A DNA stretch of 23,525 nucleotides from a virus (Duplodnaviria; Heunggongvirae; Uroviricota; Caudoviricetes), in IMG/VR virus record IMGVR_UViG_2526164619_000010, positions 1-23,525 of that record; one strand, 5' to 3'. Position 1 is the first letter of the stretch, and every line of letters starts with the position of its first letter. The notes beneath the pieces were generated by a model. It ran no database searches and had not been told where the DNA came from. It saw nothing but the letters and a program-made list of their open reading frames with translations. Position numbers and translations under genes: made by a program. Positions 5,192 to 5,480 of the stretch are shown here, in pieces.

Positions 5192-5280
5192 CCCGACCCC
5201 GGGGGGTATCATCCGGCGTAAAAAACGATCGCTTTGGACACCGCGCCCCCTCTCACGCAGAGAAAAAATTCCCGTTTCAG

Positions 5281-5406
5281 GCCAGTTAACATGTTAACTG
5301 GCTGTCCGGGCATTTTTGCGGTTTTTATCTTTATTATTCAGTTTGTTGTGCGAAAAAAATGTTAACTGGCTTTTTCAGAAAATGTTAACCAGGCAGCAGT
5401 TAACAT
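5281..5406. promoter_or_regulatory. putative cos / terminase-recognition region: array of ATGTTAAC half-sites including a 22-bp perfect palindrome
   Basis: Perfect palindrome GCCAGTTAACATGTTAACTGGC at 5281-5302; further ATGTTAAC copies at 5359-5366 and 5382-5389, and inverted GTTAACAT at 5399-5406. Lies between the HNH gene and the terminase small subunit. Function inferred from position only. Confidence 0.4.
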
Positions 5407-5480
5407 TTGCGGCATGAGACGCCGGGAAAAATGGGCTGAACCATACCCGGCTGAGTGCGTTCTGGACCCGGGAGGAGGCT

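Follow-up and report, generated by a model that had tools for sequence, protein, structure and literature searches.

A probable HNH-dependent cos packaging site with a GTTAAC repeat array in a defective Stx-type prophage of E. coli

Introduction

A close described counterpart of the packaging site treated here is that of phage HK97, whose cos, with 3′ overhangs, lies between the gene for the HNH protein gp74 and the gene for the small terminase (TerS, gp1), the large terminase (TerL) being gp2. This placement can be read from the HK97 record itself, in which the HNH gene (39054-39413) is near the right end and terS occupies 50-535. HK97 TerS has its site at +15 to +29 from the cut and stalls the motor at cos (PMC11331095; PMC9410871), and it reads this single 15-bp site via an N-terminal arm and a C-terminal helix (PMC11331095). 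In the present study we analyzed the interval 5192-5480 of a 23,525-nucleotide stretch of viral DNA (IMG/VR record IMGVR_UViG_2526164619_000010; the whole stretch is referred to as the window), which lies between an HNH gene and terS. An earlier note, made from the letters of the sequence, had proposed an HK97-type placement of cos for this interval, in keeping with the HK97 record. We put at roughly 70% the probability of the explanation given here, in which the interval serves for packaging as the cos of a lambdoid, HNH-dependent prophage from the BP-4795, 1717, 2851 and Lys8385Vzw group (E. coli Stx-phage type) and its GTTAAC repeats form a cosB-like array of TerS-binding sites.

The likeness to HK97 goes beyond gene order, since in HK97, too, the cohesive end measures 10 nt, a G9 run precedes the end by about 45 bp and terS stands at +50, and the HK97 TerS site, adjoined by an A/T-tract, lies within the left end of the genome on the downstream side of the cut (PMC11331095; PMC9410871). 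The core sequence of HK97 is different, however (CGCCGCCAAA/GTTTGAATTT, with the slash here and below marking the cut), and gp1 belongs to another PHROG and lacks the Terminase_2 helix-turn-helix (HTH) domain (no Pfam match), whereas the window TerS has an HTH domain of the G1P type. In place of the one HK97 site at +15 to +29, the window has five repeated half-sites from +30 to +157, so that neither the single site nor the gp1-type TerS of the HK97 family was found there.

In phage lambda, the gpNu1 sites of cosB (R3-I1-R2-R1) are repeated in both orientations and fill about 100-170 bp before terS, and a bend between the cosB sites brings them together. The window has a putative counterpart of this arrangement, with an array from +30 to +157, terS at +230 and a spacer that is predicted to be curved; repeated elements are present between the nick and terS and are anchored to the cut, and their binding by TerS is suggested by co-variation. 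Lambda differs in its 12-nt 5′ overhang, partly symmetric cosN, gpNu1-family TerS, IHF site and lack of an HNH partner, as against a predicted 10-nt 3′ overhang, an asymmetric core, a Terminase_2 TerS and no IHF consensus in the window. The third comparison is with SPP1 and SF6, whose TerS, G1P, shares the Pfam family of its N-terminal domain (Terminase_2) with the window TerS, and in which an oligomeric ring binds repeated short boxes (pacL/pacR) where the DNA is bent. These phages package by headful (pac) with imprecise ends and no HNH partner, whereas the window type is a cos type with both site clusters on one side of the cut, and the window's relatives have defined ends. With a different TerS family and overhang type, another number of sites and no IHF site, the window site falls outside both the strict HK97 TerS-site type and the strict lambda cosB. 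The cos sequences of Lys8385Vzw, BP-4795, 1717 and 2851 are essentially the same as that of the window.

Results

Cut site and cohesive end

The cut was located by way of relatives with defined ends. Phage Lys8385Vzw has been induced, purified and sequenced, and PhageTerm analysis classed it as a cos phage whose cohesive ends are of the 3′ type, with CGCCCCCCCT closing the genome (PMC7946995). Its record ends in GGACACCGCCCCCCCT, the last part of which is CGCCCCCCCT, and starts with CTCACGCAGAGAAAAAATTCCCG, whose beginning CTCACGCAGAG corresponds to window position 5252; from 5252 onward the window is colinear with Lys8385Vzw. In the linear record of Burkholderia phage Bcep176, whose TerS is 37% identical to the window TerS, the same 10 nt (CGCACGTTCC) stand at both ends, directly 5′ of CTCACGCGCAGAAAA. 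In addition, two virome contigs, L156 (35.5 kb) and L170, begin exactly at CTCACGC. A sister TerS family that lacks the HTH domain (L230-L309, IMG/VR) supplies 22 virome contigs whose ends lie 31-59 nt upstream of terS and about 17 whose first base is exactly the one homologous to +1; the ends of virome contigs therefore mark physical cos ends. The physical end of the relatives is at this position.

Numbering was set from the cut, with +1 at window position 5252. For the window, whose own prophage is defective, the genome ends are given by homology to these relatives, which would place the cohesive end at 5242-5251 and the nicks at 5251/5252 on the top strand and 5241/5242 on the bottom strand, with a 3′ overhang by the same reasoning. 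The features around the cut are the following.

5197-5206, plus strand: GC palindrome CCCCGGGGGG (C4G6), directly 3′ of the HNH stop codon
5201-5206, plus strand: G-run within C4G6, at -51 to -46 from the cut
5236-5241, plus strand: left part of the core, GGACAC of GGACACC, directly 5′ of the cohesive end (from the column consensus of the alignments)
5242-5251, plus strand: predicted cohesive end CGCGCCCCCT, an asymmetric C-rich 10-mer giving a 10-nt 3′ overhang by homology to Lys8385Vzw, Bcep176 and the starts of virome contigs
5252-5274, plus strand: right part of the core, CTCACGCAGAGAAAAAATTCCCG, +1 to +23, in which +12 to +17 are an A6 tract (consensus CTCAcGCacAGAAAAaattCCc)

The ends of Lys8385Vzw and Bcep176, both of which carry the same repeats as the window, thus map within the interval, and the proposal of a cos between the HNH gene and terS holds to that extent. 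The part of the proposal that took a symmetric element for a cosN-like cut does not, as the cut falls in the asymmetric 10-mer, which follows CCCCGGGGGG at a distance of 36 bp and precedes the 22-bp palindrome described below by 30 bp. An asymmetric cut site fits TerL and the HNH protein each nicking one strand, as proposed for HK97 (PMC11331095), and by analogy with HK97, cleavage would need TerL, the HNH protein and TerS. The cohesive 10-mer itself occurs in at least three alleles, CGCGCCCCCT, CGCCCCCCCT and CGCCCCCCGT (L026-L105), and where prophages in one host differ in this sequence, the mismatch might limit annealing between their ends.

Conserved cleavage core and G-run

Further loci were collected by a search with the TerS protein, which gave 20 genomes of Enterobacterales and Acinetobacter, and by an IMG/VR search with the pattern CTCACGCNCAGAAAA, which gave at least 120 stretches; the counts of core-pattern loci below refer to unique loci among the matches listed. 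The common layout is a G-run followed by GGACACCGCGCCCCCT/CTCACGC.AGAAAAAATTCCC, and the column consensus is ggAcACCgc.ccccct/CTCAcGCacAGAAAAaattCCc. A run of G5-G11 ends at -41 to -50 in 115 of 130 loci, and in a set of 53 close variants the length of the run varies from 6 to 12 G. The relatives keep only the G-run of CCCCGGGGGG and not its palindromy, so that the GC palindrome pointed out in the earlier note is better described as a local form of the conserved G-run, which is possibly a cosQ-like termination or nuclease-positioning element. In one locus, L227 (positions 746-2204 of L227; LC567822.1, the PPompW prophage; equivalent to about window position 5203), ISEc20, an element of the IS110 family, lies precisely within the cos G-run and has a G-run on either side; the upstream HNH and lysis genes are absent, and this may be a G-run/cos-targeting insertion or an insertion sequence (IS)-mediated deletion.

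The same core occurs with a TerS that lacks the HTH domain and with a TerL of 45-58% identity. Among five HTH-less loci with the core pattern, L115, L156 and L196 match the Lys8385Vzw TerL at 45-58% identity, the same range as that of the HTH-type loci of high GC content, and HNH homologues are found in L111, L129 and L196. Since the core is common to loci with either type of TerS, we assign it to recognition by TerL/HNH; it would be read by these proteins, with a putative role for its A-tract.

The GTTAAC array and its link to the TerS domain

Every palindrome and half-site listed in the earlier note was found at its coordinates, and the repeats downstream of the core are arranged as follows.

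5281-5302, strand-symmetric: 22-bp perfect palindrome GCCAGTTAACATGTTAACTGGC, i.e., GCCAGTTAAC-AT-GTTAACTGGC, with GTTAAC at +34 and +42; proximal site pair
5303-5358, no strand: AT-rich spacer, 34% GC vs. 55% for the window
5357-5368, plus strand: distal half-site AAATGTTAACTG, with GTTAAC at +110 and ATGTTAAC at 5359
5380-5391, plus strand: distal half-site AAATGTTAACCA, with GTTAAC at +133 and ATGTTAAC at 5382
5397-5408, minus strand: distal half-site CAGTTAACATTT, inverted, with GTTAAC at +148 and ATGTTAAC at 5399-5406

The full half-site is a 12-mer, A(A/C)ATGTTAAC(T/C)(G/A), and the last two octamers form an inverted pair with a 9-bp spacer (AAATGTTAAC-N9-GTTAACATTT). The octamer ATGTTAAC occurs six times in the 23.5-kb window, with five copies in the 122 bp from 5285 to 5406, when 0.35 copies are expected per window and six were reached in none of 100 shuffles; GTTAAC occurs nine times against 3.0 expected, again reached in 0/100 shuffles. 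By our own estimate a perfect 22-bp palindrome would arise by chance about 23,500 x 4^-11 = 0.006 times per window. It is surrounded by an outer imperfect dyad (AAAAATTCCCG at 5264-5274 with CGGGCATTTTT at 5307-5317), and in many close relatives it is imperfect, with GGCAG replacing GCCAG at 5281-5285. The GTTAAC spacings in the array are 8, 23 and 15 bp, compared with 9-14 bp in other lineages. The spacer holds T5 tracts at 5313-5317 and 5322-5326 and an A7 tract at 5353-5359, and a wedge model predicts strong curvature over the core (5220-5270) and the spacer (5310-5335), at about the 95th-99th percentile of the window, with the spacer reaching about the 95th-98th.

The position of the first repeat follows the cut. 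Among the loci with the core and an HTH-type TerS, GTTAA/TTAAC is present at +28 to +62 in 85 of 85, and GTTAA(C)/GTAAAC stands at +34 to +36 and at +42 to +50 in all 85 as well; the first site is fixed at +34 to +36 while the terS start ranges from +40 to +230. The motif also follows the type of TerS. Residues 2-57 of the window TerS form an N-terminal Terminase_2 HTH domain of the SF6/SPP1 G1P type (PF03592, 36.1 bits, 1.3e-8; cut-off 26.1), and a PDB search with this protein gave weak matches (E 0.19-0.78) to the G1P DNA-binding domains 4zc3, 2cmp and 3zqp; the SP-016 TerS scores 34.2 bits with Pfam Terminase_2 and that of Bcep176 24.2 bits, which is below the cut-off of 26.1. GTTAA was found at +28 to +62 in none of four core-pattern loci with an HTH-less TerS. 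The C-terminal ~90 residues of the window TerS are homologous to the HTH-less TerS of L115 (34% identity, E 2e-12), and the HTH alone is missing there. In the wider HTH-less family (70 unique loci), GAAT(T)CA-type repeats take the equivalent place in 60 loci, and GTTAA occurs in eight, solely within Val-Lys codons. In these 60 loci GAAT(T)CA(GC)AA stands directly before the ATG, with no obvious Shine-Dalgarno sequence. A label of 'P27 family' for the HTH-less TerS was dropped because Pfam gave no match.

The codons at the start of terS point in the same direction. The terS start of most Enterobacterales is at +40 and reads ATGTTAACA (Met-Leu-Thr), with GGAGGGTGTAAAC in front of it, and this start is overlapped by an imperfect palindrome, TGTAAACATGTTAACA, which occupies the place where the window has its 22-bp palindrome, the ATG of the latter being at the ancestral start position +40. 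The Leu of the N-terminal Leu-Thr is encoded by TTA, giving TTAAC, in all 52 loci that have this Leu at +42 to +70, phages with 60% GC included, and by CTN in 26/26 loci where it lies at +68 or beyond, with the two ranges overlapping at +68 to +70. A 'long form' is seen in the Stx-type lineage of E. coli, in which the same site is kept, terS starts 190 bp further on and three extra half-sites are present. Among virion-sequenced phages of the short form, a GenBank search gave FSL SP-016 alone in addition, as a partial genome that does not start at cos.

Bipartite arrangements with proximal and distal clusters recur in independent lineages. In one lineage with 60% GC, GTTAAC lies at +36, +50, +232, +244 and +259, which are five of the 5-6 copies in up to 14.6 kb, and other lineages have distal GTTAA(C) clusters at +211-232, +163/178 and +115. 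In L107, L118, L120, L124 and L146 (+232 to +264) and in L106, L161 and L214 (+211 to +237), two or three GTTAAC 9-15 bp apart lie inside the terS coding sequence. Up to 14.6 kb of these genomes has hardly any GTTAAC besides them, so that the 60%-GC phages appear to carry TerS-binding sites within the terS gene itself.

Together, position, domain swap, codon choice and bipartite arrays tie the motif to the TerS HTH domain and not to coding, transcription or the nucleases. The proposal that the GTTAAC repeats are small-terminase binding sites gains comparative support. A further expectation, that the array would be conserved across homologous relatives, was borne out in part: the octamers are invariant in 53 unique close variants, but their surroundings are nearly invariant too.

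Short open reading frames (ORFs) span from repeat to repeat because ATGTTAAC holds an ATG and an out-of-frame TAA, and they are probably incidental; one of them, a 24-codon hydrophobic ORF at 5291-5365 (MLTGCPGIFAVFIFIIQFVVRKKC), starts at the ancestral terS start position (+40), where the GGAGGG Shine-Dalgarno sequence has been lost. A reading of the region as a miniature inverted-repeat transposable element (MITE; 10-bp terminal inverted repeats 5291-5300 / 5397-5406) was set aside, as the half-site array already accounts for the repeats.

Other explanations of the repeats

Of the competing explanations, the one that survives best, unlikely though we hold it to be, is that only the proximal palindrome is functional and that neither the 190-bp extension nor the distal half-sites have a function, both being by-products of a displaced terS start in the E. 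coli lineage and arising, e.g., by illegitimate recombination at ATGTTAAC microhomology or as decayed duplicates of the ancestral gene start. A single site pair at the terS start suffices in most relatives, the ATG of the palindrome lies exactly at the ancestral start position +40, E. coli is the one lineage in which the extension is known, and motifs and spacers are not told apart by their conservation in close relatives, all of which would suit this explanation. It is countered by the extension itself, which has no similarity to any terS beyond 8-mers (searched as a terS duplication by blastn-short and tblastx), and by the retention of perfect 8- to 12-mers in both orientations amid unrelated DNA. 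Independent lineages, moreover, have distal clusters of their own (+115, +163/178, +211-232, +232-259), some of them within coding sequence of 60%-GC phages.

Somewhat less probable still is an RNA hairpin, in which the 22-bp palindrome, with its flanking CCCG/CGGG and its A6/T5 arms, would act as a terminator-like insulator or transcript-stability element and would block non-antiterminated transcription from upstream moron genes into the head genes, replacing or adding to a protein-binding role. The fold of 5260-5330 is indeed stable (-22.7 kcal/mol, z = -3.65, with 0/200 shuffles as stable), and its 20 pairs are followed by UUUUUGCGGUUUUU; the A-run before and the U-run after the stem resemble those of bidirectional intrinsic terminators. 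Nevertheless, a terminator scan of the region made no call, A-U pairs make up the outer six of the stem, and no continuous GC stem directly adjoins the U-run. Compensatory changes were absent from a set of 11 distinct close variants, and the common GGCAG variant has a G-G mismatch. In other lineages the motif is present as direct repeats or within the terS start, without a hairpin or U-run, and the hairpin would leave the three distal half-sites unexplained.

An operator of the late operon had been offered in the earlier note as an alternative. TGTTAA is the half-site of ArcA, whose box consists of TGTTAA direct repeats in an 11-bp register. Against an operator speaks the control of late genes in lambdoid phages by Q antitermination, and the related PPompW prophage has an annotated Q gene upstream. 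That the GTTAAC/TGTTAA repeats are an operator through which a phage or host transcription factor (e.g., ArcA) acts on terS or the late genes is very improbable: palindromes and inverted pairs are typical of operators, and TTAACA and TAACAT are the hexamers of a weak minus-strand match of the sigma-70 kind (9/12), but the promoter scan of the region gave no promoter-like site on the plus strand and this match, built from the repeats, as the sole one on the minus strand, the motif is anchored to the cut (+34 to +36) and not to a promoter or to the terS start, whose distance from the cut varies between 40 and 230 nt, it co-varies with the TerS HTH domain, it is kept in a Burkholderia phage and in other phages of 60-63% GC, whose hosts to our knowledge lack ArcA, and its spacings (8, 23 and 15 bp, or 9-14 bp elsewhere) misfit the 11-bp register, so that the ArcA box was rejected on spacing and host range.

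Genomic setting and distribution

Pfam and PHROG searches of the window proteins showed that the interval 5192-5480 is flanked by the HNH gene, terS and terL.

4933-5191, plus strand: packaging HNH endonuclease gene, 3′ part (Pfam HNH 2.4e-8; phrog_589 HNH)
5481-6044, plus strand: terS, a 187-aa small terminase (GTG start; GGAGGAGG Shine-Dalgarno sequence; PF03592; phrog_641)
6041-7219, plus strand: terL, truncated (Pfam TerL_ATPase; phrog_7622 and phrog_9)

The HNH gene, whose stop codon is at 5189-5191, has lost its 5′ part of about 36 codons (the 5′ third of the gene) to an IS3-family insertion ending at about 4932; the ORF 4889-5191 begins within the IS end, phage matches start at query position 45, i.e., window 4933, and the intact homologue in Lys8385Vzw has 121 aa. 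The IS3-family element that breaks the gene extends from 3717 to about 4932, with orfA (4571-4873) and orfB (3717-4535) both on the minus strand. The window terL encodes 392 aa vs. 553 aa in Lys8385Vzw, whose TerS is 94% identical to the window TerS; window 6041-11511 is colinear with that phage at 94.3% identity, with 42 gap positions in a 6.3-kb alignment. An IS1 transposase is encoded at 751-1254. Given the HNH gene cut by an IS, the truncated terL, the 42 gap positions and the IS1 transposase, the prophage has decayed, and its copy of cos would therefore be usable only in trans. The window also encodes, at 1447-3408, a protein of 653 aa in which DUF1737, DUF6645 and a carbohydrate esterase domain of the SASA type are present and which we take to be a NanS-p-like esterase typical of Stx-type prophages.

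The 289-bp interval is present in 1277 of 5426 complete E. coli genomes, at up to seven places per genome and with a total of 2998 E. coli copies. A wider query (5150-5520) matched 94 phage records, almost all of them Stx1a-, Stx2a- or Stx2c-converting phages, together with BP-4795, 1717, 2851 and YYZ-2008, and phages of the BP-4795, 1717, 2851 and Lys8385Vzw type match the window cos sequence at 93-98% identity.

Discussion

We propose that the site consists of two modules. The first would be a cleavage core at about 5197-5274, made up of the G-run, GGACACC, CGCGCCCCCT (5242-5251) and CTCACGCAGAGAAAAAATTCCC, at which TerL and the HNH protein would make staggered nicks to leave 10-nt 3′ overhangs. 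The second, resembling cosB, would be an array within the left end of the packaged genome in which five 12-bp half-sites are each centred on GTTAAC, with the proximal palindromic pair at +30 to +51 (5281-5302) and the distal three at +106 to +157 (5357-5408) separated by the 56-bp AT-rich spacer. The N-terminal Terminase_2 HTH domains of an oligomeric TerS would bind the half-sites, and an intrinsic bend in the spacer could let the proximal and distal clusters touch one TerS assembly by looping, thereby standing in for the role of IHF in lambda. This assembly would set TerL/HNH on the core for initiation and would probably stall the motor for termination, as in HK97.

Several points weigh against this proposal. 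The repeats are assigned to TerS because motif and TerS domain type correlate, and few independent HTH-less lineages have the exact core (4-5 loci), the 70-locus set having a more diverged one. Among the 53 close variants, 0/38 motif columns vary compared with 13/181 others (p = 0.13), so that selective conservation of the octamers is not significant, the whole region being nearly invariant. Outside the E. coli lineage the three distal half-sites do not occur, so they could be dispensable, and GTTAAC is palindromic, which leaves the orientation of the core motif ambiguous. Unlike in lambda, no IHF site accompanies the array (WATCAANNNNTTR with up to one mismatch, searched in 5192-5480). In addition, the curvature is a wedge-model prediction, and the 3′ polarity and 10-nt length of the overhang come from one PhageTerm analysis plus record conventions.

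A broader view, to which we give about an even chance, is that the cos sites in a very large set of HNH-dependent phages, reaching from E. coli to Burkholderia and Acinetobacter, are built of two exchangeable modules, a cleavage core and a TerS specificity module. The deeply conserved TerL/HNH core would be the G-run, the C-rich 10-mer and CTCACGC.AGAAAA, and a swap of the TerS N-domain (G1P-type HTH vs. an Arg/Gly-rich arm, as in TerS of the L115 type) would accompany a swap of the motif (GTTAAC vs. GAATCA-type). On the same view the motif would be written into the terS start through a forced rare TTA Leu codon and could be expanded to a bipartite array with the DNA wrapped or looped on the TerS ring, as in the E. 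coli lineage.

In the literature that we searched, the 10-mer is reported for Lys8385Vzw, and we found no description of the core, the G-run, the GTTAAC array or its link to the HTH domain, nor of a DNA site for a TerS with a Terminase_2 HTH in a cos/HNH context. A literature search with the cohesive-end sequence returned irrelevant eukaryotic matches only, and the literature on cf-PICI (chromosomal islands that are phage-inducible and form capsids), Chi-phage and Bcep176 does not map this cos. In kind, the window site is an ordinary, expected feature of a cos phage, and it is the recognition motif that seems to be undescribed.

About one in four complete E. coli genomes has this type of cos, and so do many of the phages that convert their host to Stx1a, Stx2a or Stx2c production. 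Knowledge of the cut site and of the probable TerS motif allows one to predict which prophages, decayed prophages and satellites share packaging specificity, and those that do could be mobilised in trans, along with toxin genes. HTH and HTH-less TerS proteins on the same kind of core provide a natural domain-swap series for small-terminase specificity. If true, the modular organization would amount to a packaging-specificity code that predicts cross-packaging among co-resident prophages, defective prophages and satellites, and the correlation between motif and domain, together with the wide distribution in E. coli, makes packaging specificity and cross-mobilisation directly testable.

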